55,700 bases of DNA, from IMG/VR virus record IMGVR_UViG_3300029448_006778, positions 1-55,700 of that record. The stretch is one strand, 5' to 3'. The number at the start of each line of letters is the position of its first letter. The stretch's first letter is position 1. Position numbers and translations under genes: made by a program. Shown here piece by piece: positions 2,670 through 39,522 of this stretch. The stretch comes from a virus (Duplodnaviria > Caudoviricetes). The notes below the pieces were generated by a model. It was not told the DNA's origin. It was given only the letters and a program-made list of their open reading frames with translations, and searched no databases.

Positions 2670-3287
2670 TTACTCTCCTCGTATAATTTTATTAATTATA
2701 TCTTCTGCTTTACAAAATTGTCCACAAGTTCTCGATTGTCCTCTTTCGACATTCTCGTTTACTGGATATAGAAATGCTCCATGTGTTGATGGATTCGATA
2801 CAAAATCAAATGCAATCAATTCAAAGTCATTTCCAACTTTTTGTGCAGGTTCATCATCTGGACCTTCTGATACGGTTTCAACTGAACCCATACCACGAGA
2901 ACTAATACCTAACTTGATACCATTCTTGAATAATTCTCTTAAAATATTTCCACTTGGTGTTGTTAGGATTTCTACCGTTCCTAATAAGTTATCACCCTCA
3001 AAGTGCATTTCTGTAATATTATGAGATACATTTTGTAAATTTACTACTGAACTATCTGGATGATCTAATTCACCAAGTGCTCTTTTTTGTTTAATAAAAT
3101 TACTATTATATTTTTTTGACTCACGAACCAAAATATCTCTTGGATATACTCTTCCATTTTGATTTTTTGCTTCTGCTCTTTGTAATACACCTTTAACAAC
3201 TAACTTTCCGTTGTTTTCTTTGATTGACTCATTTACTTGAGTTGCTGATATATCAAATGGTATATAATCTACAATTAAATCCCTCAT
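2670..3287 (-). CDS. Prohead core protease (T4 gp21-like)
   Basis: Motifs GVLQRAEAKNQNGRVYP, ALGELDHP, GISSRGMGS and FDFVSNPS; lies downstream of the portal gene. Confidence 0.93.
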   Translation of the reverse strand: MRDLIVDYIPFDISATQVNESIKENNGKLVVKGVLQRAEAKNQNGRVYPRDILVRESKKYNSNFIKQKRALGELDHPDSSVVNLQNVSHNITEMHFEGDNLLGTVEILTTPSGNILRELFKNGIKLGISSRGMGSVETVSEGPDDEPAQKVGNDFELIAFDFVSNPSTHGAFLYPVNENVERGQSRTCGQFCKAEDIINKIIRGE

Positions 3288-5323: not shown

Positions 5324-7171
5324 CTATTTTTTTCCTTTGTAATCATTATATTCTTGTTCAACTTCATCTATTTTCTTCTCTTCAGATAAAATTTCTTGTG
5401 ATTTTTTACCCATTGTCTTTTTCAATGCATCATAGTGAGCAAGTGCTAATGGTGATTTGGTATATTGATTCTTTTTATCTTGTTTTCCTAAAGGATCTCT
5501 ACCTCTTGCACCACTATCTTTACTATACTTGTTCATTTCCTTGGGTCTACCTGCACCCTCGTGTCCACCCTCAGGTGAACCACCTTGTTCATCTACATCA
5601 CTCCAAACTGAACCTGCAACTGAATCATCATTGTCGTCATCCGATGATGTCATATCACTTGGTGTTCCAACTGATTCTCCAGATGCTTGTGGATCATTGC
5701 CTTCATTTTCGATTTGTTCGTATCTAAATTTATTTTTCTGGTCTTGAACAATTTGTTTTTCAATTTCTTTCTTCTCATCATCTGAAAAATTAAACACATT
5801 GTTATAAACCCATTCACTTGGTAGTAATTTCTCACCAATCATATCACGAGCTAATGAAACTTTCTGTCCCCATAGTTCAATCTTTTCTTGGTCATACATT
5901 GTAGATGGATTAGTTAATTCTAATTCGAAATTCACCAACTCTGCATCTGTATACCCTTGTGAATATAAGTGAACAACTGCAATCTTTGTTAACTCTGATA
6001 TAATAATTCTCTGTATTCTTTCTATGGTTCTAGCAAATCTTACATCTTCTGCTGCGAGTGTTGCTTTACTTCCCATGTTTTCATCAAATCCTAAGAATGC
6101 CTTTGGTACTCTTAGTGATGCCAATAGTTTATTCTTTAAATATTCAATGTCATCAGTTGAATCATAATCTAATCCACCCAACTCTGATATTTCAGTTCCA
6201 CTATCTCCACCTCGAACTGGCATAAAGAAGTCTTCTGTTAGGTTCTGTATATTATATTTTAAATTATAATCTCCAGTATTCTCATCAAGGAATGGTGTTT
6301 TCTTCATCTTGTTGATGATTCTTTGCATATAATTATCGACTTCATTTGGTGGTATATTACCAATGTCAATCTTGTAAACTCTCTTCGATGGTGCTCTCAT
6401 AATTCTGTGAATCAACATCGCATCTTCCATAAGAGTTAATTGTTTCCAAGTCTTTCTTGCACTTTCCATCATTGATTTACCATAAGGTAAAAAGTTACTA
6501 TCACTTGCCAATCTGAAGTGTGCTACTTGAAAGTTTTCAAATTCAATATTATTACCTTTTTGTTTTGCTCCAAGGTAAGGATGTGCACCCTCAATACTTT
6601 CTAAATAGAATTTAGTATAGTATGGATTAATTGGATCTTCACCCTCTGCTCTTACGACTTCATAAGGTGACAATGGTATAACATTAGTAATACCATACTT
6701 CTCATTTACATCTAAGTATAGATAAAAATCTCCATACTTACACATATTACGAACCCAAGGCCATAGGTTGAACTCAATGTTCATAATATCATAAAATAAA
6801 TTATGTAATATTTCTTTAATGTTTTCGTTATCTGATTTAATCTCAACCACATTACCATATTCTGATTTCATTGTTGATTCATCTGAATAGATATCCAATG
6901 CACTCGATATGATAGAGTCACTATCCATCGTTTCATAGTCTTTAAATAACCCCAATCGTGCAGCCATCACTTGGTGAACTGACGAATAGCCTGTCCCCAC
7001 TAAGTCTAAATTTGAATGTAGTTTAGAATATCTATCTACAAGATGACTCTTCATTTGATGTTGTACTTGATCTGTATCAGCAATTTTTAATTTCCTACCA
7101 CCAACATTTCTTACAATAACATTTGTTGAAAATAGTCGTTGTAATCGACCAAATAATGATTTATCTGCCAT
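5324..7171 (-). CDS. Portal protein (T4 gp20-like)
   Basis: Motifs LMEDAMLIHRIMRAPSKRVYKIDIGN, EDFFMPVRGGDSGTEI, DIEYLKNKL and EDVRFARTIERIQ; directly follows terminase. Confidence 0.95.
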   Translation of the reverse strand: MADKSLFGRLQRLFSTNVIVRNVGGRKLKIADTDQVQHQMKSHLVDRYSKLHSNLDLVGTGYSSVHQVMAARLGLFKDYETMDSDSIISSALDIYSDESTMKSEYGNVVEIKSDNENIKEILHNLFYDIMNIEFNLWPWVRNMCKYGDFYLYLDVNEKYGITNVIPLSPYEVVRAEGEDPINPYYTKFYLESIEGAHPYLGAKQKGNNIEFENFQVAHFRLASDSNFLPYGKSMMESARKTWKQLTLMEDAMLIHRIMRAPSKRVYKIDIGNIPPNEVDNYMQRIINKMKKTPFLDENTGDYNLKYNIQNLTEDFFMPVRGGDSGTEISELGGLDYDSTDDIEYLKNKLLASLRVPKAFLGFDENMGSKATLAAEDVRFARTIERIQRIIISELTKIAVVHLYSQGYTDAELVNFELELTNPSTMYDQEKIELWGQKVSLARDMIGEKLLPSEWVYNNVFNFSDDEKKEIEKQIVQDQKNKFRYEQIENEGNDPQASGESVGTPSDMTSSDDDNDDSVAGSVWSDVDEQGGSPEGGHEGAGRPKEMNKYSKDSGARGRDPLGKQDKKNQYTKSPLALAHYDALKKTMGKKSQEILSEEKKIDEVEQEYNDYKGKK

Positions 7172-7183
7172 GTTTTACCTCAC

Positions 7184-8767
7184 TTACAAGAGCCACTCTA
7201 ATGACTCTTTTTCTTTGTTTTTTCCAGTTTCCCACTCCCAACTATCGTTTTTATTCACATCATCGTTAGTGTACAAACCCTCATTATCCATCATTTTGGA
7301 TAATGTCTTTTTTGTTAATTCAATTCCCTCGGTTCGTAGTCTTAATGCAGTATCACGAACCCATAAACCAATAGCAAAAGACATAACTAAATCATCGTTA
7401 TATCCTCTCATTGCTTCGGCTCTATTATTAATATAAACGAATGTTAATAATTCATCTATTAATCTACTTGAGTGAACCACTACTGATTCATCTCTAAAAT
7501 ATTCTTCAAGTTTTGCAATAATTAATGGACGGGTTTTCATTGTAGTTGTAAATCCTGCCACCATATTTCTTTCTTGAGCTCTATATCGATTACCCATCTG
7601 ATGTTGTGTATCAATATATTTTAAATCTTTACTTGTATAAAATAGATTAGGATAATCCCTATCTATTACTTGTTGGATTGTTGCCCAACCAATGTTGTTG
7701 TTTTCTATAATTAGTAAGGCATCGTTATATTCTGTTGCTATACTTACTAACATATTTCCAAAATCTTTGGTATTTATTCTACCTTTGTATTCTGCGACTT
7801 GTTCTATAGTTTCAATGTCAATAACATGGAATGCTGAATAATCTCCACCATCTCCTCTACCCACATCTGCACATACTACATAATTATTTTGATAGTTTGG
7901 TGGTTCCCAAATCCAACAATTACTATCAATACCTCTTCTTTCAAGTGGTTCCTTAACTGATGTTTCTCTACACTTTTCTAATAATACTGCATCAATTACT
8001 GAAGTACCAGAAGTTAAGAAGTCACAATCACATTCTTGTGCTGCACTTCCTGGCCCAAGTAGTGTATCTTGTTCATCTCTCCATTCTTGTTTCCTATCTG
8101 GATGAACCGTCCAATGTAACTTGATTGGATTAAACAAACCAACAGCATCTTCGGCCTCTACCCAAGTTTTGTGGAACCAATTACCAACTCCATTAGGTGT
8201 TGACAATGCAATACATTGTCCACCAGTAGTTAGTGTTTGTTGTGCTGCAGTCCATATATCATCAATCTTATCAATGAATGCTGCCTCATCCAATATCAAT
8301 AATGATAATGCCTCTGAACGAGCTGCTTCTGGACCTGATGCAACTGCCTTAACTTGTGAACCATTTTTATATCGTAAGTTCAGTTTGTTATCCTCAACAC
8401 ATCTTTGTTTCAACCAACTCGGTAGATTAGCATGCATAACACGAATTTTTGTTACCAAATTTTTTGCCACATCTTGTTTGGTTGCAATTACCAAAATGTT
8501 TTTATCTTGATGAAAAGTCATCATCCATAAAGAATACCCTGCAGTTAATGTTGATAACCCTAACTGACGAGCTTTCAAAATAACATTCATTCGATGTTCT
8601 TGAAATTCATCAACAACTTTATCTTGAAAGTCAAATAAGTCAAATGGTATCTTACCTCGTATTGGATGTTGTATAACACAATACTTTTTCATAAAATATG
8701 CTGGACTTTGTGCACACTTTATGTATTCTGACTTAATTACTTCTTTTAATTGTTTTGGTTGTCCCAT
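7184..8767 (-). CDS. terL: Terminase large subunit (T4 gp17-like)
   Basis: Adenine-binding region LFDFQ, Walker A variant KARQLGLST, Walker B LLILDEAAF, coupling motif LSTPNG, and nuclease motifs CADVGRG and NDDLVMS. Confidence 0.96.
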   Translation of the reverse strand: MGQPKQLKEVIKSEYIKCAQSPAYFMKKYCVIQHPIRGKIPFDLFDFQDKVVDEFQEHRMNVILKARQLGLSTLTAGYSLWMMTFHQDKNILVIATKQDVAKNLVTKIRVMHANLPSWLKQRCVEDNKLNLRYKNGSQVKAVASGPEAARSEALSLLILDEAAFIDKIDDIWTAAQQTLTTGGQCIALSTPNGVGNWFHKTWVEAEDAVGLFNPIKLHWTVHPDRKQEWRDEQDTLLGPGSAAQECDCDFLTSGTSVIDAVLLEKCRETSVKEPLERRGIDSNCWIWEPPNYQNNYVVCADVGRGDGGDYSAFHVIDIETIEQVAEYKGRINTKDFGNMLVSIATEYNDALLIIENNNIGWATIQQVIDRDYPNLFYTSKDLKYIDTQHQMGNRYRAQERNMVAGFTTTMKTRPLIIAKLEEYFRDESVVVHSSRLIDELLTFVYINNRAEAMRGYNDDLVMSFAIGLWVRDTALRLRTEGIELTKKTLSKMMDNEGLYTNDDVNKNDSWEWETGKNKEKESLEWLL

Positions 8768-9453: not shown

Positions 9454-9725
9454 TATTCATCCTCCTTGTTAGGTTTACTTATTCCTGCGTCATCTAAAAG
9501 TTCATCAAGTGAAAATGTATTAAACTTTTCTTTGTGTCGTACATCTTCATATTCTAAACTCATAAGTTTTCTCACTACCCTCGTGTAAAGATTTACTAAT
9601 GAATTAGTTTCTTTACCACCAACTTTATTATTATAATCTATAGCAATCTCACCTAATCGTGAAGTTAATGCCATTAAATCAAGTACTATTGATTCAGGTA
9701 ATATTAAGTTTTTTGGCTTCTTCAT
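9453..9725 (-). CDS. Hypothetical protein
   Basis: 90-aa ORF filling the gap, coupled to its neighbours. Confidence 0.6.
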   Translation of the reverse strand: MKKPKNLILPESIVLDLMALTSRLGEIAIDYNNKVGGKETNSLVNLYTRVVRKLMSLEYEDVRHKEKFNTFSLDELLDDAGISKPNKEDE

Positions 9726-10260
9726 CTATTTCATTCTCTATTTTAGTTATGTAATCACGAGCTTCTTTTACTACATGAGAAAATTCGGTTTTACCCATTT
9801 CCCACTTTTCTCTTTCAAGTTCAACATCTTGAACCCCAACTGAATTGAGCCATTCAACTTTTCCATCCGAGTCTTCAAACTCGTCAATACTTTGTTTTAA
9901 ATCATTTAAATATGATTTTTTATTTTCTAATTCTATATTCTTTGCATAGTCTTCAAACTTACCCTCTAAACGAAGTCTGTTTTCAAACTCAATTTGACAA
10001 TCAAAACAATGTCCTTTAGTTCTCCAAAACTTTGTATCAAGTTTTTTCTTCATTGTTTTTTTACATTTAGGACAAAACCAAGGCATTCTAACATCTTTCA
10101 TAATGTCTGTCATTTTTCCTTGACGAGTTTCTCCACCTTTATCTACTGGACCCTTACCCTCGTATCCTACTTGAACATAATCTTTTTCATGTTCTTTACC
10201 ACTCATTAAATCCTTGAGTGCCTTATTCTGTCTTTCCATGTCTTTACTATAATTTGCCAT
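9694..10260 (-). CDS. Hypothetical protein with a C4 zinc finger
   Basis: WFCPKC...GHCFDC; AGGAG SD. Confidence 0.7.
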   Translation of the reverse strand: MANYSKDMERQNKALKDLMSGKEHEKDYVQVGYEGKGPVDKGGETRQGKMTDIMKDVRMPWFCPKCKKTMKKKLDTKFWRTKGHCFDCQIEFENRLRLEGKFEDYAKNIELENKKSYLNDLKQSIDEFEDSDGKVEWLNSVGVQDVELEREKWEMGKTEFSHVVKEARDYITKIENEIDEEAKKLNIT

Positions 10261-10268
10261 TGTAACTC

Positions 10269-13200
10269 CTATCCAAACTTTAAACTACCAAGAATTTGAT
10301 TGATTGGTGCAAATGCTCCTGTGAATTTATAAATGTTTCCTTTATACTTAAACACTATACCCTCACTTGGAACGATTGCCTTTACTCCACCAATCTTCTG
10401 TAGTTTTTCTATTTGTATTTTTAACTTTTTCAATTTTTCTATTTTATCTGGTTTTTTCAAATCTTTTAGTGCATTTAATAATTCTTTCTTTAACTTCTGT
10501 ACTGATTTATCAGGGGACACTGCAATGTATCCTTGTATATTTTTCAGTATCTCTGCACCCACTTGGAAGAATAATATTTCAAATGGTTTAATATTTTGTT
10601 TAAATATCTTACTATGATCTTGTTTATCTGTGGATGTTATCCAATCTAAAAATTTAGGATTATCTTTAAAATCTCTTTTAATCTCTGGTATTTTATATCC
10701 CTTATCAAAGTATGCCCATCGTTTAACTAACTTTGCAAATTGACTTGGTTTTAATTTAACTTTATATTGTTTTGATGCATTAAAGATATACTCTCTCCAA
10801 AATGATTCGTGATACATACCCAAAGTATCTTTATCAGATAATGCATATTGTTTTTGTAACTTATTTAATTGTCCTAAAAATTTATTTCTTAACTTACCAA
10901 AGTCTTGATGTTTTGGTACACTTAAAAAATTTGGTTTACCAATCTTAAACATTTTTTGTATGTGATTATTTGTTTGTTTAATCATACCTGCCAACATACG
11001 AGCACTATCTTTTGGTTGTCCAATAGGTCTACCACTCTCATCATACTCTAATGTTCCATGAAATATTATTTCTGCAACATCGTAATCTATTACATTTGCA
11101 GTTGCTGGATACATAACCTCTAAATTCATCCATTTCTTACCATTACCGAATACTTTATCTTTTTGTTTATCATTTAAACTACCTATAGATTTCTCTAAGT
11201 CTTTCATCGCACCTACAAAAGCTTTTTCTATATTACCCCTACCACTAAACATAGATTTTATTCCATTCGTGGTTGGAGCAGTTTTACCAAAATTCTTTAA
11301 ATGTCCTTTGTTACGAGCTGCTCTTAACTTACCATCTATCCAACTTACCATTAGATTTTGTCCATCGAGTTTTTCTGTAACCCCATCTTCTCTATCTAAC
11401 TTTCCACCTATACCATTAATAATTATCTGTTTCAAATCTGAAAACATCAAATTATTATCATCAAATGGATGTGCCATATGTCCGTATGCTCCACCCTCTA
11501 TTAATAAGTCAACTTCTTGTAAAAAACTTTCTTTAATGTCTTCTATAGAATCACTTTTAGAGGCATCACCTGGTGCTAAGTCAAGGTTTATTACTCTTTG
11601 AGTATTCTGGTCACCTGTTTGAACTCCAGGTAAAGCTGGTGCTTCAACTGGTACACCTGTTACATTCTTTTCATCAGGAGTTAATCCTAACCATTTAACT
11701 ATTTTAAAATCTATATTAGAAGTTACTTTCTCAATCCATTGTTTATATGCAATTATTGGATCTTGACTTGGGAATCTCTCACCATATGGGCCTGCACCTC
11801 TTCTACCAAATGCTACGGTTGGAACTTTGTCCATTCTCGTAGTATAATCTAATCCAGGATCATTTGCGTTCTTACCTAAAATATAATGTACTAACTCCCA
11901 TCCAAGTCCTCTTTGTGATTCACTATTATATAAAGTTTCAATCCATTTTTTAGATTGTTTTTTGTAATCACTAAATCCATCATAGAATGTTGGTGGGCCA
12001 TCATCTGTTGGAAAGTTTGTAGATGGTGATGATTCTTTTAATATTTCACTTATATCATTATGTATAATAAAATTATCAAATGTTTCAAATAGTTTTTTAA
12101 ATTTATTTGTCATCATATTATAAACACCCTTATCAAAGTATCCGAATGCCTGTTTAAATAATTTAGGTCTATCCTCTTTCTTTACTTTTGGACTACCTAA
12201 TAAGTTTCTCATTACGGTTCCACTTACATCTTGTCCACCAACTTTAATTGATTGGTGTGGTGCAACCATATAGTATCCATGTTCTTCATGTCCTTTTAGG
12301 TTGTTTTTATTTTTATTGTAATCTTGAAAGTATGATAATTTACCACTTTTATTCTTACCACCTTTTAGTCTTCCTGCATCTTTCTTACCGAAGATATAAA
12401 CTACTGCAGTAGTTTCTGGATCAAACTTTTTAAGTAAACTCTTTGCAACCAATGGTATTTTTTCTTTTATAATTTTATTTTTAGGTACACCCATTTTCAC
12501 CATATGTCTAACTTTTTCTGAATAGTTCATTGGATGTTTTGGTGGTTTCTTTATATCTGAAGTAGTGATATATGCGTCATCAACTTTAGATTGTAACCAC
12601 TTAAATGTTTTTAAATGATGTGGGCCAAATGGTTGATATCTACCACCAAATATACCGATTACTTTTTTAATCTTTTTTTCTTGTTCTTTTAGTTTATTAC
12701 TTTTTTTCCATTGAGCATAATTCTTATCAGATATTTTTTTACCATCTTCATTTACTTTTTTACTTGTATCGGTTTTCATAAATGGGCCTCTACGAAGTGT
12801 TCTAAATTTTACTGGTACTTCTTGTCCAAATAATTTTTTTGGTGCTAATATTCTTAAAGTAACCATTTCAGTTTTGTTATCTATTTTTTTTGTTTCAAAA
12901 TCTATTTCTTTGTATTTTCTACCTTTGTGAGTAAGATTAAATCCTGTAATGTTTTTGTGAACCTTTCTACCTGATACTGCTTGTTTTGCTCTTTCATTAA
13001 ATTTTTTATATCCACTACCATAAGGAACTGATGTATTTCCTTTTCTCTTCATCTTCTCAACACCCTTTCTACTTGGTGATGGAATTGCCATTTCATTAAT
13101 GATACCACCTCGTTTATTATACCAAGTTCTAAATTTTGCTGGTGTTCCTACGGTTACACTTCCTTTTGCAATCTTTTCGGCTGCTTTTCTAATATTTGGA

Positions 13201-15431
13201 TAATCATTTCTACTTAATAAAAATACATCTTGAACATGAATTTGATTAACAAGTATTTCGTTCCACCCGTGTTGTGATGGTTTATCTTTTTGACTTAATA
13301 TGTGTCGTTTGATTTGTGGTTTGTATTTATTAATAATTTTATAACCCATATCAATATATTTTTTAATCCATTTTCTTTTCAATGGGCCCATTATTTTTTT
13401 CATTTCTTTTTCTTTACCTCTATAACCACCTTGATAATCGCCCCAATAATCATTTTCTTTTTCCCACTTCTCTTCTGCTTTTCTGTATATTCTATCCCAA
13501 CTTCTTCTATCCATTTTTTTGCTTTCAATGGCTGATTTTAATTCATTATACATTTTACCACCAGCAACTTTACCTGCCAAATCTTGAACTGGAATCCATC
13601 TACGACCTGTATTATCTGGCATTGATTGCATATCTCTTGTACTTGCAACTAATAAAGTTCCCTCTATTTGATAAATGATACCACCACCTGATTGTATACC
13701 TTTTCCTTTTGCAAGTTTCTCACCTTTGTCTACTCTGGTAAATGTAGATAGTGTTCCTTTTTTTCCAACAATTCTTTGAACTTGTTTTATATCACTTTCA
13801 TATTCTGCATTACCGACATGAAATACACTTACTTTTTCTTTACCCAATATACTTTGTATTTTTTTAGTAGACAATGGAACATAATTAGCATACCAACGAC
13901 CGAATGTTGCGTCAAATGTTGATGTTCTATGAACCGAATGAAATTTTGGTTCTTTATCATCATCTTCTGTTAGTTCGTTCTTCTTTTTCTTTTTGGATGT
14001 ATCAGGGTTGTAATATTGATGTTCCCCATCTTTTTGATTTGCAGGTGTTGGTGATTGGTTTCTAAGATAGTTAGGTTTGTTTAACATTTCTAAAAACTTT
14101 TTCTTTTCTAAGTCTTTTATTTTATCACCAATTGCCTTTCCTTTTAATCCAACTATATCACTACCCTTTACACTTAACTTAAATGTTGCAAGTTTTCTAA
14201 AATCTTTACCAATCATTCCACCCCACACAACGATTTGTCTTGGTGTTAATGTAGTTTTCTCTTGTGCCTTTTTAACCATATAAATATTTTCTGGTTTGAA
14301 GTTAGTTAAATAAACTAAGAACTGAATGTTGTTACTTTCTTTTGCACTATACTTTAGTGAGTTTAATTGTTTACCTAACTTACTTACATCATTCTTTCTT
14401 AAAATCATTGCAAGAAATAAAATATAATCCTTGACATTTGGATAAGGTTTTCGTATATTTAGTTGTGGTAATATTTGTTTTGTAAATCCAAACTTATCAC
14501 ATGCTTCCATAAATAATTTAGGATTTTTACCCTTTTCTATACCCTTTACAAATTCTTCTCTAATTCTTTCTCTACTTACACCCTTTAAACTTGGATTATC
14601 TAATAATGCCTTTTCAGTATCTTTATCCATCTTACCACCGATAACTGCTTGAAATCTCAATGCTCTTAATTTTCTTAACGGGTCTTCGTCAAATCTTCGT
14701 TTTGGATTACCAACCGTTCTTACTAATTTATTTTTTAAATCTTTTAATCCACCTGTTATATCAACTATCTCATCTCTACCAATATCATAAAATAATGCAT
14801 TGATAGTTAAATCTCTTCGTTTAACATCACCTTGTATATCAGAAAAATCTACTGCATCAGGTCTTCTACCCTTACCAATATCTTTTCTGAATGTAGCAAT
14901 CTCATGTCCACCCACAACCACAACACCAAATTGTTTACCAACTTCATATGTTTTGAATCCACCACTCTTTGCAATCTTCAATACTTCTTCTGGTTTTGCA
15001 TCAGTTGCCAAATCAAAATCTTTTGGTGATTTACCAAGGATTGCATCACGAACTGCTCCACCTACAATGTATAATTGTTTTTTGTTTTTCTTGAATAATT
15101 TATACAACCCTTTAATATCACCAGGAACTTTTACTTGAACTTTCTTTCCCTCGGTAAACTTATCTGCTCCTCTCATGTCTGGATCAGGTGCAACTGAATC
15201 TTTACCTGGTTTCTTGTTTGGTAACAATTTTCTATCTGATTTTATTATTCGGAACTTTAATGCCGTTCTATTATTAATAAGTAAATCACCCTTTTCATTA
15301 TAACCAATAGTCTTAACTTTAGTTTTTTTATTCTTAAAACGGCCTGTTAAGATAGTGTCCCCAATTTCTACGGGGATTTCTATATCTTCTATTAAAGGTT
15401 TTGTTAACCATTCTGTTAGTCTGTTTTTCAT
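10269..15431 (-). CDS. 1720-aa multi-enzyme (poly)protein: CCA-adding/poly(A) polymerase domain, possible ART-like domain, HIGH-type nucleotidyltransferase and ligase-like KxDG domain
   Basis: CCA motifs VGGAVRD, KDFDLAT, EIATFR, DVKRRDLTINAL, EDPLRKLRALRF and SRERIREE (~14090-15150). GGRYQPFGPHH...VSGTVMR (~12030-12680). GGAYGHMAHPFD...TEKLDGQN...SEGIVF (~10269-11495). Confidence 0.85.
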   Translation of the reverse strand: MKNRLTEWLTKPLIEDIEIPVEIGDTILTGRFKNKKTKVKTIGYNEKGDLLINNRTALKFRIIKSDRKLLPNKKPGKDSVAPDPDMRGADKFTEGKKVQVKVPGDIKGLYKLFKKNKKQLYIVGGAVRDAILGKSPKDFDLATDAKPEEVLKIAKSGGFKTYEVGKQFGVVVVGGHEIATFRKDIGKGRRPDAVDFSDIQGDVKRRDLTINALFYDIGRDEIVDITGGLKDLKNKLVRTVGNPKRRFDEDPLRKLRALRFQAVIGGKMDKDTEKALLDNPSLKGVSRERIREEFVKGIEKGKNPKLFMEACDKFGFTKQILPQLNIRKPYPNVKDYILFLAMILRKNDVSKLGKQLNSLKYSAKESNNIQFLVYLTNFKPENIYMVKKAQEKTTLTPRQIVVWGGMIGKDFRKLATFKLSVKGSDIVGLKGKAIGDKIKDLEKKKFLEMLNKPNYLRNQSPTPANQKDGEHQYYNPDTSKKKKKNELTEDDDKEPKFHSVHRTSTFDATFGRWYANYVPLSTKKIQSILGKEKVSVFHVGNAEYESDIKQVQRIVGKKGTLSTFTRVDKGEKLAKGKGIQSGGGIIYQIEGTLLVASTRDMQSMPDNTGRRWIPVQDLAGKVAGGKMYNELKSAIESKKMDRRSWDRIYRKAEEKWEKENDYWGDYQGGYRGKEKEMKKIMGPLKRKWIKKYIDMGYKIINKYKPQIKRHILSQKDKPSQHGWNEILVNQIHVQDVFLLSRNDYPNIRKAAEKIAKGSVTVGTPAKFRTWYNKRGGIINEMAIPSPSRKGVEKMKRKGNTSVPYGSGYKKFNERAKQAVSGRKVHKNITGFNLTHKGRKYKEIDFETKKIDNKTEMVTLRILAPKKLFGQEVPVKFRTLRRGPFMKTDTSKKVNEDGKKISDKNYAQWKKSNKLKEQEKKIKKVIGIFGGRYQPFGPHHLKTFKWLQSKVDDAYITTSDIKKPPKHPMNYSEKVRHMVKMGVPKNKIIKEKIPLVAKSLLKKFDPETTAVVYIFGKKDAGRLKGGKNKSGKLSYFQDYNKNKNNLKGHEEHGYYMVAPHQSIKVGGQDVSGTVMRNLLGSPKVKKEDRPKLFKQAFGYFDKGVYNMMTNKFKKLFETFDNFIIHNDISEILKESSPSTNFPTDDGPPTFYDGFSDYKKQSKKWIETLYNSESQRGLGWELVHYILGKNANDPGLDYTTRMDKVPTVAFGRRGAGPYGERFPSQDPIIAYKQWIEKVTSNIDFKIVKWLGLTPDEKNVTGVPVEAPALPGVQTGDQNTQRVINLDLAPGDASKSDSIEDIKESFLQEVDLLIEGGAYGHMAHPFDDNNLMFSDLKQIIINGIGGKLDREDGVTEKLDGQNLMVSWIDGKLRAARNKGHLKNFGKTAPTTNGIKSMFSGRGNIEKAFVGAMKDLEKSIGSLNDKQKDKVFGNGKKWMNLEVMYPATANVIDYDVAEIIFHGTLEYDESGRPIGQPKDSARMLAGMIKQTNNHIQKMFKIGKPNFLSVPKHQDFGKLRNKFLGQLNKLQKQYALSDKDTLGMYHESFWREYIFNASKQYKVKLKPSQFAKLVKRWAYFDKGYKIPEIKRDFKDNPKFLDWITSTDKQDHSKIFKQNIKPFEILFFQVGAEILKNIQGYIAVSPDKSVQKLKKELLNALKDLKKPDKIEKLKKLKIQIEKLQKIGGVKAIVPSEGIVFKYKGNIYKFTGAFAPINQILGSLKFG

Positions 15432-15435
15432 TTAT

Positions 15436-16650
15436 CTACCATTTACGACAAGACCAGTAACGAGCTTTATGTCTTGGGCCTGGACTATCACAATTGTGTC
15501 TTGCTCTAAATGCTTTACGAGCTTTAGGATTAGACTTTCTAATTCTCATAGTACCACCCTTAGCATCCCCACCTTGTCCAAAATTAACTTTAACCGTGTT
15601 ACCTTTAGGGTTTTTAACATACACCTTAAATTTCTTTGTATCACCTTGCATTGGTTTACCAAGTTTTACTTTTCTTCCTTGATATTCTGCCTCATTGATA
15701 TCTTCATTGTTAAAATCAAATGTATATCCACCAAACTCACCTGTATTAGATTCGTAATAGAGTTCGTTTTCACCTAACCAAACATTAGTCTGAACACCCT
15801 CTTTCTTTACACAATTAGGATATGTTTTACCGAACATTTTCTTCATACCTTTTTTCTCATATCCTTTCCAACACTTCTCATCAAGACTCCAAACTTTGAA
15901 TTCTTTAACATCTTTTTCTTTTTCTTTTGTAATTCCATCTATTCTTTTAGATAAGTTTTCTTTCTTTTTCTTCTTCTTACCCTTTTCTTCATATCCACTT
16001 GCAAATGCTGCCTTTCTTTGAGCATCACTAGCAAATCCCTCTTTTTTGGATTTGTTACCCCAATTCTTTGCACCAACTTTTCTACATTTTACCAATGCAC
16101 CACTTGCGTAAGCAGATGGCCAGACATCATAACGAGATTTTACTTTATGATAACATGCATCCTTTTCACCAGCAGCTTCATCAAATTGAGCTTCTGTGAG
16201 TTTCTTTCCTACTAATTCTTCTAAATTCATTATGTTTTCCGCTTTCGTTTTTACTCTAATTGGTTTTTTACCACCACCTCTTATTGATGATGTTCCACCA
16301 CGATTTGCTTTATTTTGTGCACTTCGTTTTCTACGAGTAGCACTTTCCTTATCTTTCTTACTCATACTACGAGCTTTACTTGCAGGAACACATTTTGCAT
16401 ATGCTCTCTTTTTACCACTTGTCCCACAAGCTGGATGTTTACCACTTTTATCTTTCTTACCGATATTCACCCATTTATCACTAAACCATTTTTTTAAATT
16501 TTCATCAACAATATTTCCACAATTAACACAAGTATTTTCATGTGCCAATAATTCTAACATATCGTTCTTAACCATCATCTTTTCTTTTGATGATAACCTA
16601 TCTTTCTTTTTTCCGATTTCTCTCGGTTCGTCTATGTGAAATGTTGCCAT
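15436..16650 (-). CDS. Modular basic, Cys-containing protein (probable internal head polyprotein; DUF6321-like C-terminus)
   Basis: Modules LKKWFSDKWV...KCVP, KDACYHKVKSRYDVWPSAYASGALVKCRK, CWKGY...PNCVK and AEYQGRKVKL...RARHNC...YWSCRKW, each preceded by an xxE linker. Confidence 0.7.
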   Translation of the reverse strand: MATFHIDEPREIGKKKDRLSSKEKMMVKNDMLELLAHENTCVNCGNIVDENLKKWFSDKWVNIGKKDKSGKHPACGTSGKKRAYAKCVPASKARSMSKKDKESATRRKRSAQNKANRGGTSSIRGGGKKPIRVKTKAENIMNLEELVGKKLTEAQFDEAAGEKDACYHKVKSRYDVWPSAYASGALVKCRKVGAKNWGNKSKKEGFASDAQRKAAFASGYEEKGKKKKKKENLSKRIDGITKEKEKDVKEFKVWSLDEKCWKGYEKKGMKKMFGKTYPNCVKKEGVQTNVWLGENELYYESNTGEFGGYTFDFNNEDINEAEYQGRKVKLGKPMQGDTKKFKVYVKNPKGNTVKVNFGQGGDAKGGTMRIRKSNPKARKAFRARHNCDSPGPRHKARYWSCRKW

Positions 16651-16653
16651 AAT

Positions 16654-16971
16654 TTATCTCGGTGGTTTGGATTCCCAAGGGCCCCAATGTCCTAATTTTA
16701 CCATTTGTGTTGCTGCTTCTTTACCTGTATATTTATAAACTGGATATCCCTTTACTGGTATTCCACCTAACTTATAATACTTCTTTTTTGGTAATGCCAA
16801 TTTCTTTCCATTGGAAAAATCCATTACCATACTTCCTTTTTCTATCCAACAATGACCATAAGGTTTCCTATCACTTGCCAACAACGCAACTCCGTGACAC
16901 AACTTAAATTGTTTATCACCCATTTTTTCAATGATAAAATTACCATTGGCCTGATAACAATCTCCAGCCAT
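16654..16971 (-). CDS. Small protein with a transglutaminase/papain-like Cys-His-Asp pattern
   Basis: Start moved to the ATG at 16971 (overlaps the endolysin stop); GDCY...GHCWIE...VMDFSN. Confidence 0.55.
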   Translation of the reverse strand: MAGDCYQANGNFIIEKMGDKQFKLCHGVALLASDRKPYGHCWIEKGSMVMDFSNGKKLALPKKKYYKLGGIPVKGYPVYKYTGKEAATQMVKLGHWGPWESKPPR

Positions 16972-17453
16972 TATACTGACAATGTTCTCTTGAACCAACC
17001 AAATAAAAATCGTTCTTGTTCAGGTTTTTTATTAACTAAATCGTAATAGTGTTTTAATCTATAACAACGAACTCTATGATCTGATGGTTTATATGTATCA
17101 ACTGCACTTTTAGTACCTGGCCCAAATCCACCATCAACTGCCAAGTCAGCACCTTTTGCATTACATGCTCTTTGTAAAACTCTTACTGCAGTTCCTCTAC
17201 CTTGATTCACACACATATCAAAAAAGATATGTTTTAAATTTTCTGGTAAGTCATCTACTTTATTTCTATCCCAATAATCTCTTTTGTAAATTTCTTTAGC
17301 ACCATCTTTTGTAAGGTTCTTGATATCTACATCAGGATAAAATCTACCTGCAATACCAAAATTAGTTTCTCCACCCAAGTCTTTTGGGTCGTGTACATAT
17401 CCGCCTTCATGTTCAAGTGTTATTTCTATAATTTCATCAAATGTAGTTAACAT
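16971..17453 (-). CDS. Endolysin, glycoside hydrolase family 108 with C-terminal PG-binding segment
   Basis: LEHEGGYVHDPKDLGGETNFGI, FDMCVNQG, LAVDGGFGPGT, FLFGWFKR. Start moved to 17453 (AGGAG SD). Confidence 0.9.
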   Translation of the reverse strand: MLTTFDEIIEITLEHEGGYVHDPKDLGGETNFGIAGRFYPDVDIKNLTKDGAKEIYKRDYWDRNKVDDLPENLKHIFFDMCVNQGRGTAVRVLQRACNAKGADLAVDGGFGPGTKSAVDTYKPSDHRVRCYRLKHYYDLVNKKPEQERFLFGWFKRTLSV

Positions 17454-17454
17454 C

Positions 17455-18198
17455 TTATTTTCTCCTATTAAGTAGTTTTTGTTTACGAACCCACATCTTT
17501 CCGATTTTGTTTTTGATGGGTTTGTTAACAAACTTTCTAACAACTTTAGTAACCAATGGAACAAATTTTGCCTCCGCTTCTTCTTCGGATAAATGTTTTG
17601 AATTATCAATTATCACGAAATTATTTTTGAATAAGTTTTGAAAAGAACCAAGATTTTTTTGTACATCTTTCCAACTTTTCTCTAATAACTCTGGTGGTAA
17701 GATTCTATCTCTTTCTTGATTTCTTTTTTGTGCAACTTCTAATGAAGTATTTACCATACACATATAAGTATCGTATCCATCATCTTCTAACATTTTTTTC
17801 ATAGTTTGGATTTTACCGAAATCGTGTCCTGTACCATCTATTATCATACCCAACTTACCTTGTTGGTATAATTTCATTCTTTGTTTGGTAAGTGATTTTG
17901 AAAAAGTTCTTAACCCACTATAATCTGATTGTGATGGGTCTGTTAAATTTTTAAATACCTCATCTGGCATTTTATCTAAATCTGTACCGAATCCAAATTT
18001 CTTTAACAAAAATTTTAATTCTTTATCAGAGTTTACCATCTTCATACCACTCATCGATATATTAAATTTATCTGGTATACCAAATAGATTTTTTGCAACA
18101 TAAGTTTTACCACTACCAGGACCACCTGCAAGAAATACGGCTTTGAATATACCTTTATCTTGTATACCCTCGTGTATTAAGTCCATTAATTTGATCAT
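17455..18198 (-). CDS. P-loop kinase (polynucleotide-kinase/zeta-toxin-like) with MIKL leader
   Basis: MIKLMDLIHE leader, Walker A AGGPGSGKT, VNSD, IIDGTG, and lid motif KRNQERDR. Confidence 0.8.
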   Translation of the reverse strand: MIKLMDLIHEGIQDKGIFKAVFLAGGPGSGKTYVAKNLFGIPDKFNISMSGMKMVNSDKELKFLLKKFGFGTDLDKMPDEVFKNLTDPSQSDYSGLRTFSKSLTKQRMKLYQQGKLGMIIDGTGHDFGKIQTMKKMLEDDGYDTYMCMVNTSLEVAQKRNQERDRILPPELLEKSWKDVQKNLGSFQNLFKNNFVIIDNSKHLSEEEAEAKFVPLVTKVVRKFVNKPIKNKIGKMWVRKQKLLNRRK

Positions 18199-18252: not shown

Positions 18253-18930
18253 CTAAATTATGTGTTTTTTATAAATGTCAAGTTTACTTAAATCCCAATA
18301 ATCCTTATATGATCCAGTCTTTATATTGGTATTGTTTTCTTTAATTAGTTCATCAAACAATAATATACCATCTGCTGCATGTTCTGGTGGCATATACATA
18401 TTATATCCCAACATTGTAGGTGTATCGTCTTTATACCAAACACCACTTGATAAGTTTCTACCAGAATATCTAATAGTTCTTAACCAATCATATGCATCTT
18501 TATCATTTAGTAATACAACACCACCCTTTGTCATCTTTAATGGTTTATTGTAGTGAAAGGACATACACATATATGAGTCTTCGATGTACATATCTTTTTT
18601 AAGATAATGTGCACAATCATATAAATTGTATGGTTTTATTTGATAATAACCATTCCATTCTACATCTTTAAATTTAATTGAATGATTACTTTGAATTGAT
18701 AATGATGGTAGTGAAATAAATGTTTGTTTTGGTAATTCTACATAAGAACTTTGTTTAAGATATTTTAAACATAAAAATAATGCATCAGTACAATTATCAA
18801 GTACTACTGCATATTTAGAACCACAATATGTAGATAACTTCTCTTCAAATAAATCTACAATCTCTTGAGGATCATCAAACTCATAACCACTATCTTTTAA
18901 TAATTTAAATTCTTTTCTTTCTACTCTCAT
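18253..18930 (-). CDS. DegT/DnrJ/EryC1/StrS PLP-dependent sugar aminotransferase (short form)
   Basis: FEEKLSTYCGSKYAVVLDNCTDAL, YDCAH, SFHYNKPL (PLP lysine), GGVVL, GYNMYM. Start moved from 19068 to 18930. Confidence 0.85.
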   Translation of the reverse strand: MRVERKEFKLLKDSGYEFDDPQEIVDLFEEKLSTYCGSKYAVVLDNCTDALFLCLKYLKQSSYVELPKQTFISLPSLSIQSNHSIKFKDVEWNGYYQIKPYNLYDCAHYLKKDMYIEDSYMCMSFHYNKPLKMTKGGVVLLNDKDAYDWLRTIRYSGRNLSSGVWYKDDTPTMLGYNMYMPPEHAADGILLFDELIKENNTNIKTGSYKDYWDLSKLDIYKKHII

Positions 18931-20851
18931 TAATAACCTTTGTTTCATATGCTCTATTTCTTCGTCCCCACCAAATGTTTGTTTGAGCCCAATCTTTAAC
19001 ATCACCATCATAATTTTCTGATTGGAACTCGTAAGTATGTCCACCATTTTTGATAGGTTTAGAATCATATATAACTTCTTTTAAATTATAATTAAATGAT
19101 AACTTCTTTGGATAGTTTTCAAAAGGATCTTTAACTATAGCTTGTTGGAACTTAACAATATCCTGTATCAACATTACATCTACATTAGAAAAAGTTTTTA
19201 TTAAAAAATCTTGAATTTCACTATAAACTTTATCTTTATTCATCATAGTTTTTATTGCAGTAGATTCTTCAAAGTCCCAATAATAATTACCTGTAACCTC
19301 TTCTACTTTTCTACCCCAAAGTTCTTCTTTCTTTAATATCTTAGTTAATATACTTCTTATATCTTTTAGTTCACTACCAAGAAATGTATTTGGATTATCG
19401 CTCATATGTTTATATAAAGCATCATAAAATTCTTTATACTGAATATTGTCTGTAACTTTTAAAGTTCTACTTATATGTTGTGTAAATCCTAAGAAATGAC
19501 AATACATGAACATCCATCTCCACATAGAAGCCTCAATATACTCATCTCTGTTCATTGTTTTACTACCAACTACCATATATTCCTTTTCATCTTTTAACAT
19601 ATCAGGGTAGTCGTGATGAAAGAATGCAGGTGTAGTTTCTACGACATCAATTTCATATTCTTTAATATAACTTGGTTCAAAAAATGGTGTATTCGGTAAT
19701 GCAGTCATTGGATACACACCAACATAATCGTGGAATTCCATATCTAATATCTGATAAATACCATCCTTAAAAGTATCAATTGTTTCTAATGGTAGTCCAA
19801 GAATTAATTCAACATAACTTACCAATTCCTTATCTTTATATAAATCAAAGAATTCCTTTAATTTACCATTATCAACATTTTTTCTTCTCACTGCCTTTAA
19901 TACTTCAGGATTCATAGATTGTAATGCAATCGTAATTCCTTTCATCATACCTGCCTCTGTAAGTCTATGTGCATACTCAATAACTTTGTCTGCCTTTGCC
20001 TTTGCCCAATCTACACGAATGTTATCAGGAAAACCAGTTTCTTCTTTTAACTTTGTCATGTACTTAACTTGATCAAGATGTTCTTTAAACAATCCATAAT
20101 TAGAATCTGCATTGTAGAAAAATAATACTTTATTTTTTGATAACCAATCTAACTCTTTAAATATCTTATCATTAGTTTGTTTTGCAATCTTTTGAAAGTA
20201 TTTATCACCGATTTCACAAAATGTACATTGATAAGGACATCCACGAACACTTTCGATTGTTCCCTCAAAATCATACTTGTGATCTTTAATCTTAACTAAA
20301 CTATCAAATAATCCATCTAAATATGGACTTGGCATTGCATCAATATCTTTAATTCTAATTCTCGGTGGTGTTGATATCAAATCACCAAGTGGTGGATTGA
20401 TAGTAATTCCCTCAACTTTAGTCCAATCTTTATCTTTAAGGTATCGTAGTAAAATATCTTCGAATGTTAACTCACCCTCACCATGAACTAATATATCAAT
20501 ACCTGGATTATCTTTACAAAATTGTTTACATCTATCACCTTTAGGTGTTCCTTGTCCACCAAATACAACTACACATTGTGGATTTATTTCTTTTACTTTT
20601 CTTATGATTGAAGTGTTTTGTACTGAATTCCATACAAAATTAGAAACACCAATGATATGAGAATCTTTTATTTGTTCAACAATTTCTTCCTCATCCTTTC
20701 TATAATACATCCAATCTTCCATCTCTAATGAAAAATTTTCTACAATAGTTGGATTTAGGCGACAATGTCCCCATATCAAACCAGTTGAGTATGGTAACTT
20801 AACTTGATTTGCTGTTATATCTGATAATTCTAAAAAACTTATTTTATACAT
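18905..20851 (-). CDS. B12-binding-domain radical SAM protein
   Basis: N-terminal GVSNFVWN...VVFGG...HGEGE, then PSPYL, RGCPYQCTFC (CxxxCxxC), ALQSMN and ELILGLPLET. Confidence 0.9.
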   Translation of the reverse strand: MYKISFLELSDITANQVKLPYSTGLIWGHCRLNPTIVENFSLEMEDWMYYRKDEEEIVEQIKDSHIIGVSNFVWNSVQNTSIIRKVKEINPQCVVVFGGQGTPKGDRCKQFCKDNPGIDILVHGEGELTFEDILLRYLKDKDWTKVEGITINPPLGDLISTPPRIRIKDIDAMPSPYLDGLFDSLVKIKDHKYDFEGTIESVRGCPYQCTFCEIGDKYFQKIAKQTNDKIFKELDWLSKNKVLFFYNADSNYGLFKEHLDQVKYMTKLKEETGFPDNIRVDWAKAKADKVIEYAHRLTEAGMMKGITIALQSMNPEVLKAVRRKNVDNGKLKEFFDLYKDKELVSYVELILGLPLETIDTFKDGIYQILDMEFHDYVGVYPMTALPNTPFFEPSYIKEYEIDVVETTPAFFHHDYPDMLKDEKEYMVVGSKTMNRDEYIEASMWRWMFMYCHFLGFTQHISRTLKVTDNIQYKEFYDALYKHMSDNPNTFLGSELKDIRSILTKILKKEELWGRKVEEVTGNYYWDFEESTAIKTMMNKDKVYSEIQDFLIKTFSNVDVMLIQDIVKFQQAIVKDPFENYPKKLSFNYNLKEVIYDSKPIKNGGHTYEFQSENYDGDVKDWAQTNIWWGRRNRAYETKVINESRKKRI

Positions 20852-22239: not shown

Positions 22240-23063
22240 ATTAATTCTATTACTCGTTTTTTCAAAACATTATTAAAGTACACTTGATGTCCATCCCACT
22301 TAACATGCAAATTATCATCCCACATAGGTAACTTTGTTTCTTCTGCATATTCTACAAGACCATCATAGTCATTGTGATGAACAAATTTTTCTTTATCAAT
22401 TAAGTCCCACAAATGATGTGTTTCCGAATATGGTTTATGTAAAAATTCTCCATCCTTATTAGTAAATATGTTCTTCATAGTATGAAAAATGTATTTAATT
22501 TTATTTATTTTTAAAAACCATTGTAAACTCAATATTGACTCGTATGTATTTATTATTGAGTACTCGTCTGTATAAAAGTTTTCATAGTATGTATTCATCC
22601 ATTCTGCATACTCTTTATATGTATATCCATCTTTTGATGGAAACCCACCACTTCGTAAGTAACCCCAATCTCTATTCTGTGAATTATAACTAATGTTGAA
22701 TCCCTCGTCAAGTCTTAATGGTTCAGTAGTTCCTAAATTTTTAGTTAGTTCAGGCCATTTATATGTTTCATTTTTAGATGCAAATAAATCTCTACGAATA
22801 GGATCACTCCACATAACTACAACCAATATATCTTCTGGATTTTGTTGTGGTTTATCAAGTACATATTTTAATCTTTTAATAACTCTCTTTGATATCAAAC
22901 TATTACCAGAAGCAGGTTCTCCTGTATGGTAACTCCAAGTAAAATCTTGAGACTCTTCTAATGCGTTTGTCCATGTTTTTTCAGATTCTTTCATTATAGG
23001 TAAATCTGCTCTTTTAGAAAAACTACACCCACCTGTAATTAATGTTTTATATTTATTTTGCAT
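22236..23063 (-). CDS. SGNH-like hydrolase/acyltransferase, paralog family B
   Basis: ITGGCSFS, ASGN, VVMWS, C-terminal DNLH. Start moved to 23063 (GGAG SD). Confidence 0.6.
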   Translation of the reverse strand: MQNKYKTLITGGCSFSKRADLPIMKESEKTWTNALEESQDFTWSYHTGEPASGNSLISKRVIKRLKYVLDKPQQNPEDILVVVMWSDPIRRDLFASKNETYKWPELTKNLGTTEPLRLDEGFNISYNSQNRDWGYLRSGGFPSKDGYTYKEYAEWMNTYYENFYTDEYSIINTYESILSLQWFLKINKIKYIFHTMKNIFTNKDGEFLHKPYSETHHLWDLIDKEKFVHHNDYDGLVEYAEETKLPMWDDNLHVKWDGHQVYFNNVLKKRVIELI

Positions 23064-39421: not shown

Positions 39422-39522
39422 TTGTAGATAAACGGGTCTCGTTTTTTAATTTCTTTAAGCCTTTTCTTAAAAAGATACCATCTTTTAACTTTATTATAGT
39501 ACTTTTTTATTATTTTAATCAT
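39418..39522 (-). CDS. 34-aa basic peptide coupled to the carbamoyltransferase (not in the ORF track)
   Basis: Hand translation MIKIIKKYYNKVKRWYLFKKRLKEIKKRDPFIYK; ATGA overlaps at both ends fill the gap exactly. Confidence 0.75.
   Translation of the reverse strand: MIKIIKKYYNKVKRWYLFKKRLKEIKKRDPFIYK

Follow-up and report, generated by a model that had tools for sequence, protein, structure and literature searches.

A putative capsid-targeted polyprotein of RNA and nucleotide enzymes in a clade of marine tailed phages

The prohead protease of bacteriophage T4, gp21, cuts after the Glu of an L/I-x-E tripeptide, and the T4 capsid-targeting sequence, described as the first 10 residues of IPIII, uses residues 4 and 7 for targeting and residues 8 and 10 for processing, such that an Asp at position 10 (P1) blocks the latter (PMC9026906). 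T4 gp24 likewise loses its first 10 residues to the prohead protease (PMC9958956). Head cargo of this kind (IPI-III, Alt and the gp24 propeptide) is diverse, fast-evolving and counter-defensive, with the leader alone conserved (PMC9026906, PMC3012670, PMC5694885). Here we analyze a 55,700-nucleotide stretch of DNA from a tailed virus (Duplodnaviria; Caudoviricetes; positions 1 to 55,700 of IMG/VR record IMGVR_UViG_3300029448_006778), referred to below as the window. Its minus strand carries an open reading frame (ORF) at 10269-15431, present exactly as claimed in an initial annotation made from the sequence alone, which encodes a protein of 1720 aa (~195 kDa) in which enzyme domains of unlike fold are joined by linkers that end in Glu. 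We propose that this protein may be a precursor, directed into the capsid, from which a gp21-type protease would release separate enzymes.

Several other described systems are relevant. In giant phages, head and ejection proteins such as phiKZ gp175 and SPN3US gp245 are cut by S80 proteases after the Glu of a three-residue motif, S/A/G-x-E, often at several sites, and their long propeptides are thought to target cargo; in the available text of these sources the extra cuts are mainly propeptide trimming, and concatenated, shuffled enzymes are not described (PMC5694885, PMC9026906). The polyvalent proteins of Iyer, Burroughs, Anand, de Souza and Aravind (2017, PMC5512222) are likewise very large, with unrelated domains in highly variable combinations, and they are proposed to travel into the host with the DNA and to be freed by proteolysis, a release ascribed to embedded peptidases such as MPTase. 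In the available text of that paper, RNA ligases are said to lack any association with the 2H domains of polyvalent proteins, and the term CCA is absent. Phages are also described to heal and seal RNA with separate enzymes (T4 Pnkp with Rnl1 and Rnl2; the CCA-adding enzymes of jumbo phages), a repertoire that matches the CCA, kinase, HD and ligase-like modules of the family studied here (PMC7824862).

The window shares with T4 a protease of the same family, S77, and the same hydrophobic-x-Glu rule; T4 leaders of 10-20 residues end in the motif, and a window leader such as MIKLKDILKE resembles the N-terminus of gp24, which reads MAKINELLRE. In contrast, T4 cargo consists of single proteins that shed a terminal propeptide, and these are restriction inhibitors or an ADP-ribosyltransferase, whereas here as many as ~11 pieces, including whole RNA and nucleotide enzymes, are predicted from one precursor, whose 15-residue leader differs in sequence from the T4 type. 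Unlike polyvalent proteins, the polyprotein has no detectable embedded peptidase, either in the query or in eight scanned homologues, and its junctions bear the signature of a separate prohead protease. Known RNA-repair sets are separate cytoplasmic proteins made after infection, whereas these modules are fused; moreover, no sequence profile places the ligase-like module in Rnl1 or Rnl2, and it is obligatorily paired with an NMNAT-like domain. The closest mechanism is therefore T4 capsid targeting with gp21 processing, and the closest concept is that of the polyvalent proteins. A full-text literature search, outside which most subscription journals lie, returned no description of this polyprotein family.

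In the model that we favor, a short N-terminal leader would direct the precursor into the assembling prohead, where a gp21-type serine protease would cut it after the Glu of hydrophobic-x-Glu junctions to free a CCA-adding enzyme, an NMNAT-like adenylyltransferase, a ligase-like enzyme, further domains and small basic peptides, with predicted product lengths of approximately 15, 79, 354, 41, 291, 33, 82, 21, 217, 179 and 408 residues. The freed enzymes would remain in the head and reach the host together with the DNA. On hand before phage protein synthesis, they could mend tRNA or RNA ends or restore cofactors attacked by host defences, and the NMNAT-like domain could equally point to NAD restoration. 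Because every module bears the same junction signal, modules would be free to be added, lost, swapped, or kept as separate leader-bearing genes. Five independent lines of sequence evidence speak for this interpretation, and from them we infer cleavage, packaging, injection and a biological role; we regard the full in-capsid model as moderately probable.

Module borders and their exchange among relatives

The modules were delimited with two AlphaFold2 models built from family alignments, with a mean predicted local confidence (pLDDT) of 69 for aa 1-916 and 63 for aa 896-1720. The leader, MKNRLTEWLTKPLIE (aa 1-15; 15387-15431, minus strand, as for all modules), forms a predicted helix at 2-10, ends in L-I-E, and has pLDDT below 50 at 9-18. 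It is followed by a small beta domain (folded 19-63, strands 26-52, pLDDT ~75) and a linker (64-96, below 50) leading to KFTE94; this unit (aa 16-94; 15150-15386) has no Pfam match and is invariably the first module in the polyprotein's own clade. A domain of the class II CCA-adding enzyme/poly(A) polymerase family (aa 95-448; 14088-15149) then ends in KFLE448, and a mini-module starting MLNKPNYL (aa 449-489; 13965-14087; pLDDT below 50 at 455-505), which occurs in other contexts among relatives, ends in ELTE489. The folded alpha/beta module M3 (aa 490-780; 13092-13964; pLDDT mostly 60-90) ends in IINE780 and is gained or lost as a whole unit in homologues, and the next mini-module, which contains PSPSRKG and ends in GSGYKKFNE (aa 781-813; 12993-13091; pLDDT below 50 at 781-816), moves on its own.

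The C-terminal half begins with the small beta module M4b (aa 814-895; 12747-12992; strands 827-875), ending in KVNE895, and a 21-aa spacer (aa 896-916; 12684-12746; pLDDT below 50), ending in KLKE916. The HIGH-superfamily nucleotidyltransferase domain, NMNAT-like (aa 917-1133; 12033-12683), has pLDDT of 70-90 over 918-1124 and below 50 from there to ILKE1133. M6 (aa 1134-1312; 11496-12032), conserved and modeled with low confidence (mostly below 50), ends in LLIE1312, and the ligase-like module (aa 1313-1720; 10272-11495) starts with GGAYGHMAHPFDD and contains EKLDGQN (Lys1354). The initial annotation's count of about five unknown modules was right in outline, since we count approximately seven unannotated modules or spacers.

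The possibility that so long an ORF is an assembly chimera, or a fusion of neighboring genes by sequencing error, arises because the contig is metagenomic and because Logan contigs end close to several junctions, as they do at 11460-11496 in all four runs. However, the polyprotein stretch was found at 83-90% of sampled words in 14 runs from six marine/seawater metagenome studies dating from 2014 to 2024, and all 30 bins are covered by Logan contigs from four runs in four studies. Nine of the ten junctions are spanned by contigs with 0-1 differences (e.g. 11442-12795, 13932-15487 and 12707-13031), with no listed contig piece over 13031-13548. Collinear homologues of 1569-1850 aa, 75-82% identical over the core, sit on other contigs, and in one further IMG/VR locus (L004) the ligase-like module is 100% identical. 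A chimeric assembly, which the initial annotation had named as a refuting outcome of read mapping, is thus effectively refuted, and we attach next to no probability to it. At the 11460-11496 break, five contigs of one run (X3) diverge into unrelated sequence precisely at position 11496, where the Glu of LLIE1312 is encoded, as would fit the coexistence of variants with different sequence upstream of the ligase-like module. Elsewhere, a relative's contig jumps from 12679 to 12747, skipping the 21-aa spacer (a weak case with a short side). These joints and loose ends come from relatives of 90% likeness and have short sides, and are a hint of module polymorphism and no more.

All nine Glu-ending tripeptides named in the initial annotation lie at the residues and coordinates given there; a tenth junction, KFLE448, was missed, although it is the commonest breakpoint in relatives (query residues, q, 447-448). 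The disorder that had been suggested as a check is largely as anticipated, with eight of the nine tripeptides inside segments of pLDDT below 50 (which include 9-18, 64-96, 455-505, 781-816, 877-917, 1125-1153 and most of 1163-1320) and IINE780 directly preceding one. More broadly, 12 of the 22 [LIVMF]-x-E sites in the protein fall within its low-pLDDT fraction, which makes up 25% of the residues, so that they are enriched 3.6-fold there (Fisher p 0.0046). In the folded parts, the density of such sites is 0.78 per 100 aa, compared with a mean of 2.28 per 100 aa for the 52 window ORFs; such scarcity is what one would expect if packaged proteins were selected to avoid cryptic protease sites, and the lower Glu content of the polyprotein accounts for part of the deficit. 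Because a tripeptide of this kind is common by chance, it is the comparative evidence, rather than the tripeptide alone, that marks the junctions as special.

For that comparison, a word-indexed search yielded 679 long homologues of 946-3010 aa, and an exhaustive search with the core yielded 3077 cluster representatives at 50% identity, 808 of them with E below 1e-30. When the best 120 of the 679 long homologues were aligned by BLAST, homology broke at q~64-98, 447-489, 780-783, 813-818, 891-895, 913-918, ~1151 and 1285-1313, and modules were gained, lost, re-ordered or replaced at q15, 94, 448, 489, 780, 813, 895, 916, 1133 and 1312. These ten positions bear out the cassette exchange at linkers that had been predicted for orthologous loci. 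HD domains and P-loop kinases (AAA_33/Zeta_toxin) turn up inside homologous polyproteins, six homologues (P0040, P0057, P0060, P0100, P0110 and P0120) carry inserts of 335-470 aa exactly between M6 and the ligase-like module, P0106 and its relatives have a module of ~100 aa inserted right behind the 15-residue leader, and M6 is deleted in P0093.

The residue that precedes a mobile module is strikingly constant. Counting distinct contexts only, and anchoring on the first conserved residue of each module, P1 is Glu in 102 of 102 contexts before six module types (kinase 21/21, RKKGQHR 40/40, Cys-start 5/5, HD 13/13, M4b 17/17 and PNYL 6/6) and is never Asp, while P2 and the upstream module vary. 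P3 is V, I, L, M or F in all contexts for the kinase (21/21), Cys-start (5/5), HD (13/13) and M4b (17/17) modules, in 33/40 for RKKGQHR and in 2/6 for PNYL. CCA modules have a Glu three residues ahead of the anchor in 23 of 32 contexts. In an all-against-all BLAST, Glu was the last aligned residue in 21% of 1369 distinct high-scoring segment pair ends, compared with a background of 5.7%.

Several relatives deserve mention in their own right. In two related loci M6 is a separate ORF of 250 aa (12586-13335 in L079 and 12764-13516 in L082). Its first 28 residues match the helix that closes the HIGH module and finish with ILNE, which corresponds to ILKE1133, so that in the split genes this junction would act as the end of a leader. 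The Cys-start module (~280-300 aa; P0036, P0040, P0099, P0118 and P0135) begins with a Cys straight after the junction Glu (VDE/CIA.AKKFGD, with GKNRDRNY further on), and in P0135 a leader of just seven residues (MKKHIEE) lies ahead of that Cys. This arrangement is reminiscent of N-terminal-nucleophile hydrolases, in which the N-terminal Cys has to be exposed by exact cleavage, but Pfam and PDB gave no support, and we treat such an assignment as a speculative lead. A 915-aa relative encoded by a 484-kb uncultured phage (LR756508; L002, 5560-8307) has the leader MKLGSFSKKLTINLIEE followed by a DGHHRW-motif module, which we take to be ParB-like, and then HIGH, M6 and ligase-like modules, the last of these without the GGAYGHM start (STSHLRHPFED); as in the window, a zinc-ribbon gene is next. 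A weak ParBc_2 match (E 0.047) was seen in P0158.

A prohead protease and two types of leader

A gene on the minus strand at 2670-3287, 7 kb from the polyprotein gene, encodes a prohead (head-maturation) serine protease of the T4 gp21 family (Peptidase_S77, E 8.8e-26, 91 bits against a cut-off of 27; phrog_207, 9e-52). It is 30% identical to T4 gp21 over 171 aa (BLASTP, E 2e-21), the GELDHP and SSRGMGS stretches included. Synteny and leader counts were taken from 80 related IMG/VR loci, all of them close relatives; among the 17 that reach far enough past the portal gene, 16 encode an S77 protease and L009 has no match. The ORF just downstream of the protease (2075-2668), which occupies the position of the T4 gene 22 scaffold, has a DUF3008 match at its start (1.5e-10) and holds four hydrophobic-x-Glu sites.

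Four window ORFs begin with decapeptides that end in a Glu: MIKLKDILKE, MIKLKNLIKE, MIKLKELLGE and MIKLMDLIHE. Three of them, with starts of the form MIKLK[DNE][IL][LI]xE, lie next to one another on the minus strand (1083-2075, 692-1081 and 276-692, within 276-2075). The fourth (17455-18198, minus strand) is a P-loop kinase (AAA_33/Zeta_toxin; AAA_33, 1.8e-9) in which MIKLMDLIHE is followed by Gly, and its start after the leader, G-[IV]-x-D-x-G-I-F-K-A-V-F-L-A-G-G, is shared with the kinase module that relatives carry inside their polyproteins, behind x-x-E. Stand-alone kinases of related loci bear the same MIKL-type leader. Across the 80 loci, a MIKL-type decapeptide starts 42 of 868 ORFs (of at least 80 aa), compared with 0.85 expected from the rate at internal Met residues (6/6125). 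Every one of the 42 lies on the coding strand. The proteins concerned are unrelated to one another, for the most part small and unannotated, and may serve as a list of candidate capsid cargo in this clade. The polyprotein leader, M-x-x-L-T-E-W-L-x-K-P-L-x-E (15 aa), is a second, longer type; it is kept in most long homologues and in distant ones, even though the first module differs (HIGH, kinase, RKKGQHR or ParB-like).

We also note that the endolysin ORF (16971-17609, with a TTG start as listed) overlaps the kinase ORF by 155 bases; its PHROG match begins at aa 33, so that the real start is probably further downstream.

The same junctions might be cut in another place or by another enzyme: the protein could be a true polyprotein processed outside the capsid, or by a different Glu-specific protease of the host or embedded in the precursor, with products that act in the cell without being injected. 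Several modules of no known fold could conceal a peptidase, polyvalent proteins often bring their own (PMC5512222), and some homologues are without a leader. The peptidase scan of the query and eight homologues described above speaks against this, however, as does the fact that the S77 enzyme is the only Glu-specific protease evident in the locus. Furthermore, 78 of 80 loci place the gene beside those for packaging and the head, and the clade is rich in T4-type leaders. Processing outside the capsid thus seems improbable to us.

A second alternative retains the covalent links. The protein could stay whole as a stable multidomain ("polyvalent") enzyme, acting as a single polypeptide in the manner of Trl1 or Pnkp/Hen1 and losing at most its leader; the Glu junctions would then be a linker style or a trace of recombination. 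Polyvalent phage proteins are an established class (PMC5512222), and the HIGH, M6 and ligase-like modules are collinear in most relatives and occur as a fused 639-aa form (the core) in the cultured phage Mel-JY01. The ligase-module junction is also the least regular: Glu occupies its P1 position in 150 of 199 contexts, the others having Met (32), Cys (15) or Ala (2), with P3 and P4 nearly always Leu or Ile, and L-L-x-E before GGAYGHM is kept even in stand-alone and leaderless proteins. Stand-alone ligase-like proteins start, for example, MRNIGPYLIE/GGAAGHM or MTELLTE/GGAAGHL. Leaderless family members mostly keep the Glu before GGAxGHM, which argues that this junction is partly structural; LLIE/GGAYGHM may belong structurally to the ligase module itself, or the few residues ahead of it may serve as a leader. 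On the other hand, a linker style leaves unexplained why P1 was Glu and never Asp in the 102 contexts while P3 was hydrophobic and P2 varied, why this matches the specificity of the protease encoded nearby, and why separate kinase-type genes have a removable-type leader ending in the same tripeptide. A three-base Glu codon, in turn, offers no useful homology for recombination. We consider an uncleaved enzyme unlikely, though less so than the other alternatives.

Returning to the in-capsid model, the behavior of the ligase-module junction is one of a number of observations that weigh against it. KFLE448 lies at the end of the last CCA helix, where pLDDT is ~90, and ten hydrophobic-x-Glu sites fall within folded domains. 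The conservation of Glu in BLAST columns at the ten junctions ranges from 0.30 to 1.00, against a median of 0.58 for 79 other Glu residues, a lack of uniformity that we attribute to indels in the linkers (e.g. FLE versus FLGE). The polyprotein leader is unlike the MIKLK decapeptide, so that its targeting role is assumed, and some distant family members have no leader at all. The canonical HxGH of the HIGH module reads GPHH in the query's clade (HKGH in distant relatives), which bears on an enzymatic role, and the roles of both the HIGH and ligase-like modules are predicted ones. At 195 kDa the cargo would be large, although T4 is described to package large fusions (PMC9026906). Finally, the full-text literature search returned no proteomics for this clade on cleavage of the polyprotein or its presence in virions. 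A virion "cytidylyltransferase" of cyanophage S-CREM2, detected by mass spectrometry (PMC10665884), was considered and not used, as tblastn of the HIGH module gave no match to S-CREM2. Processing by the prohead protease, as the initial annotation had put it, gains an S77 enzyme in the window and the constant junction Glu, while LLIE1312 is open to another explanation and cleavage itself stays predicted.

Domain identities and possible roles

The initial annotation had described three unrelated nucleotidyltransferase folds in the one protein; two of these are firm and the third stands at the level of motifs. For the class II Pol-beta CCA domain the profiles and structures agree: Pfam PolyA_pol (PF01743) scored 106.6 bits against a cut-off of 23 (E 1.4e-30, aa 120-238), PolyA_pol_RNAbd (PF12627) scored 25.7 bits against 22 (E 9.7e-6), and the PHROG tRNA nucleotidyltransferase (1.2e-58) and PDB 1miv (3.9e-30) profiles matched. 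Foldseek retrieved solved CCA-adding enzymes with E from 2.7e-14 (4wby) to 1e-12 (TMt 0.56-0.63, ~380-440 columns), in alignments that span the whole head-neck-body-tail fold. All NCBIfam equivalog models were below cut-off (e.g. PRK13299, 170 bits against 290). By these matches, aa 95-448 are confirmed as a member of the class II CCA-adding enzyme/poly(A) polymerase family, with CCA, as opposed to A-only or poly(A), specificity being putative.

The HIGH/HUP-type domain is borderline by Pfam, where CTP_transf_like (PF01467) gave 20.9 bits with the whole protein and 21.5 bits with the segment against a cut-off of 21. The modeled fold is Rossmann-like and resembles solved NMNAT, NadD and PPAT structures: Foldseek returned NMN/NaMN adenylyltransferases (2r5w, 6e-4; 1m8k, TMt 0.60), a 50-sequence profile matched the archaeal NMNAT 1f9a (2.4e-4) and phosphopantetheine adenylyltransferases (PPATs, 1.5e-3), and a weak NMNAT match was also seen in the PHROG and NCBIfam scans, which matched only this and the CCA part. 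Members of the HIGH superfamily canonically have (H/T)xGH after strand 1, as well as SxTxxR. The query reads GGRYQPFGPHH in this region, and distant relatives read GRFQPFHKGH; in SGTVMR, the S, G and R are invariant. Taken together, profile and predicted fold confirm aa 917-1133, with the borderline Pfam score, as a HIGH-superfamily NMNAT-like domain with a predicted enzymatic role.

The claimed KxDG domain of covalent type is the weaker case. Its motif stood: K (Lys1354), D and G of EKLDGQN are invariant in 50 of 50 aligned relatives, and over the same 50 sequences the K, D, G, R, E (MNLEV), G (SEGIVF) and K (YKFTG) are all invariant, in what we infer to be the order of ligase motifs I, Ia, III, IV and V, with ~250 aa between IIIa and IV. 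A significant match to a ligase-family profile was not obtained. Pfam RNA_ligase (PF09414) reached E 0.011 (16.3 bits against a cut-off of 27) over motif I only, no PDB ligase was matched by a 4-sequence or a 50-sequence profile, and hhalign against T4 Rnl2 was not significant (E 0.11, probability 0.5%). Viral "RNA ligase" rows were found by Foldseek (best E 1.5e-3, probability 0.69, the rest weaker), and in the ESM atlas the module falls with viral clusters in which DUF6267 is present in 24% of members. PDB matches to ribosomal eS6 were disregarded as low-complexity and Lys-rich. The module also exists stand-alone, at 417-424 aa, and GGAYGHMAHPFDD at its start is the most conserved motif of the family. 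The motifs tentatively suggest that aa 1313-1720 may be a ligase-like covalent nucleotidyltransferase, with weak support for family membership.

For the rest of the protein, Pfam at E up to 5 (six segments) returned nothing for aa 1-105, 490-780, 781-916 or 1134-1312, and Foldseek of the N-terminal half against PDB returned CCA enzymes only, leaving M3 without a match. An ESM atlas assignment of M3 as DarT/PARP or Arr (0.88) was under the tool's reliability line and was not used; its other neighbors were unnamed viral clusters. The sequence of M6 is well conserved and contains two stretches that resemble each other (one containing GLGWELVHYILG and the other IDFKIVKWLG), yet its pLDDT is mostly below 50, and it may fold only on a partner.

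By analogy with known repair sets, the repertoire of the family (CCA-adding enzyme, HD phosphohydrolase, P-loop kinase, ligase-like and NMNAT-like modules) would fit tRNA/RNA healing and sealing and rebuilding of the 3' CCA. A wider proposal, on which we are evenly divided, is that these polyproteins are the combinatorial "first-aid kits" of a large clade of marine tailed phages, leader-targeted, cut in the prohead and injected, and that they are the first protease-processed enzyme polyprotein in dsDNA phages. Three things would then be new: a prohead protease that cuts a single precursor into several complete enzymes, a junction code by which modules can shift between polyproteins and stand-alone genes with a leader, and head cargo made up of RNA/nucleotide enzymes. 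If true, the T4 capsid-targeting and gp21 paradigm would grow from propeptide trimming to the release of enzymes from a polyprotein, which is otherwise a hallmark of RNA viruses. The model would likewise account for how phages could overcome defences that disable translation (tRNA cleavage, CCA-end removal and NAD depletion), as ready-made repair enzymes would be useful because they are independent of the machinery under attack. The trait would be a common one among marine phages that has gone unnoticed: set against the 3077 cluster representatives, the HIGH module occurs in 2 of 50,697 phage records, and the family is nearly absent from cultured phages. A megablast of the polyprotein gene against the same 50,697 records gave no match. 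The junction code makes exact, testable predictions of mature N-termini and would be a natural toolkit for packaging foreign proteins in capsids, and the comparison defines M3, M4b, M6, the GGAYGHMxHPFDD ligase-like module and the Cys-start module as conserved modules.

Genomic setting

The window has a GC content of ~30%, and nearly all of its genes are on the minus strand. The polyprotein gene has an endolysin/kinase region on one side and the genes for packaging and the head on the other; on the latter side, the next gene encodes a 188-aa zinc-ribbon-like protein (9694-10260), beyond which lie the large terminase (TerL, 7184-8767) and then the portal (5324-7171). TerL is present downstream of the polyprotein gene in 78 of the 80 related loci. 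The closest cultured counterparts of the window TerL, at 54-55% identity, are those of Flavobacterium phage vB_FspM_immuto (160 kb) and Microcystis phage Mel-JY01 (190 kb), and terminases of T4-like cyanophages rank next (~30% identity to the window TerL). The contig is therefore probably a piece of a larger, distantly T4-like ("far-T4") myovirus. No tRNA genes were found within the window.

Enzymes for sugars and small molecules form a long run at 18253-55626, an unusual ballast for a phage that may serve surface or DNA modification. They include three radical-SAM proteins (18905-20851, with a B12-binding domain, 39519-40976 and 46543-48843), two GT7-type glycosyltransferases fused to LamG/pentraxin-like domains (40967-42481 and 44251-45717), a carbamoyltransferase (37967-39421) and a DUF5672 plus transketolase-like region (23053-24363). 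Within the same run, an ORF of 498 aa (50249-51745) has weak matches to Hint and homing-endonuclease-Hint models at aa 324-358 (E 5e-6 and 2.6e-5), which fall under the Pfam cut-offs and could be the remnant of an intein.

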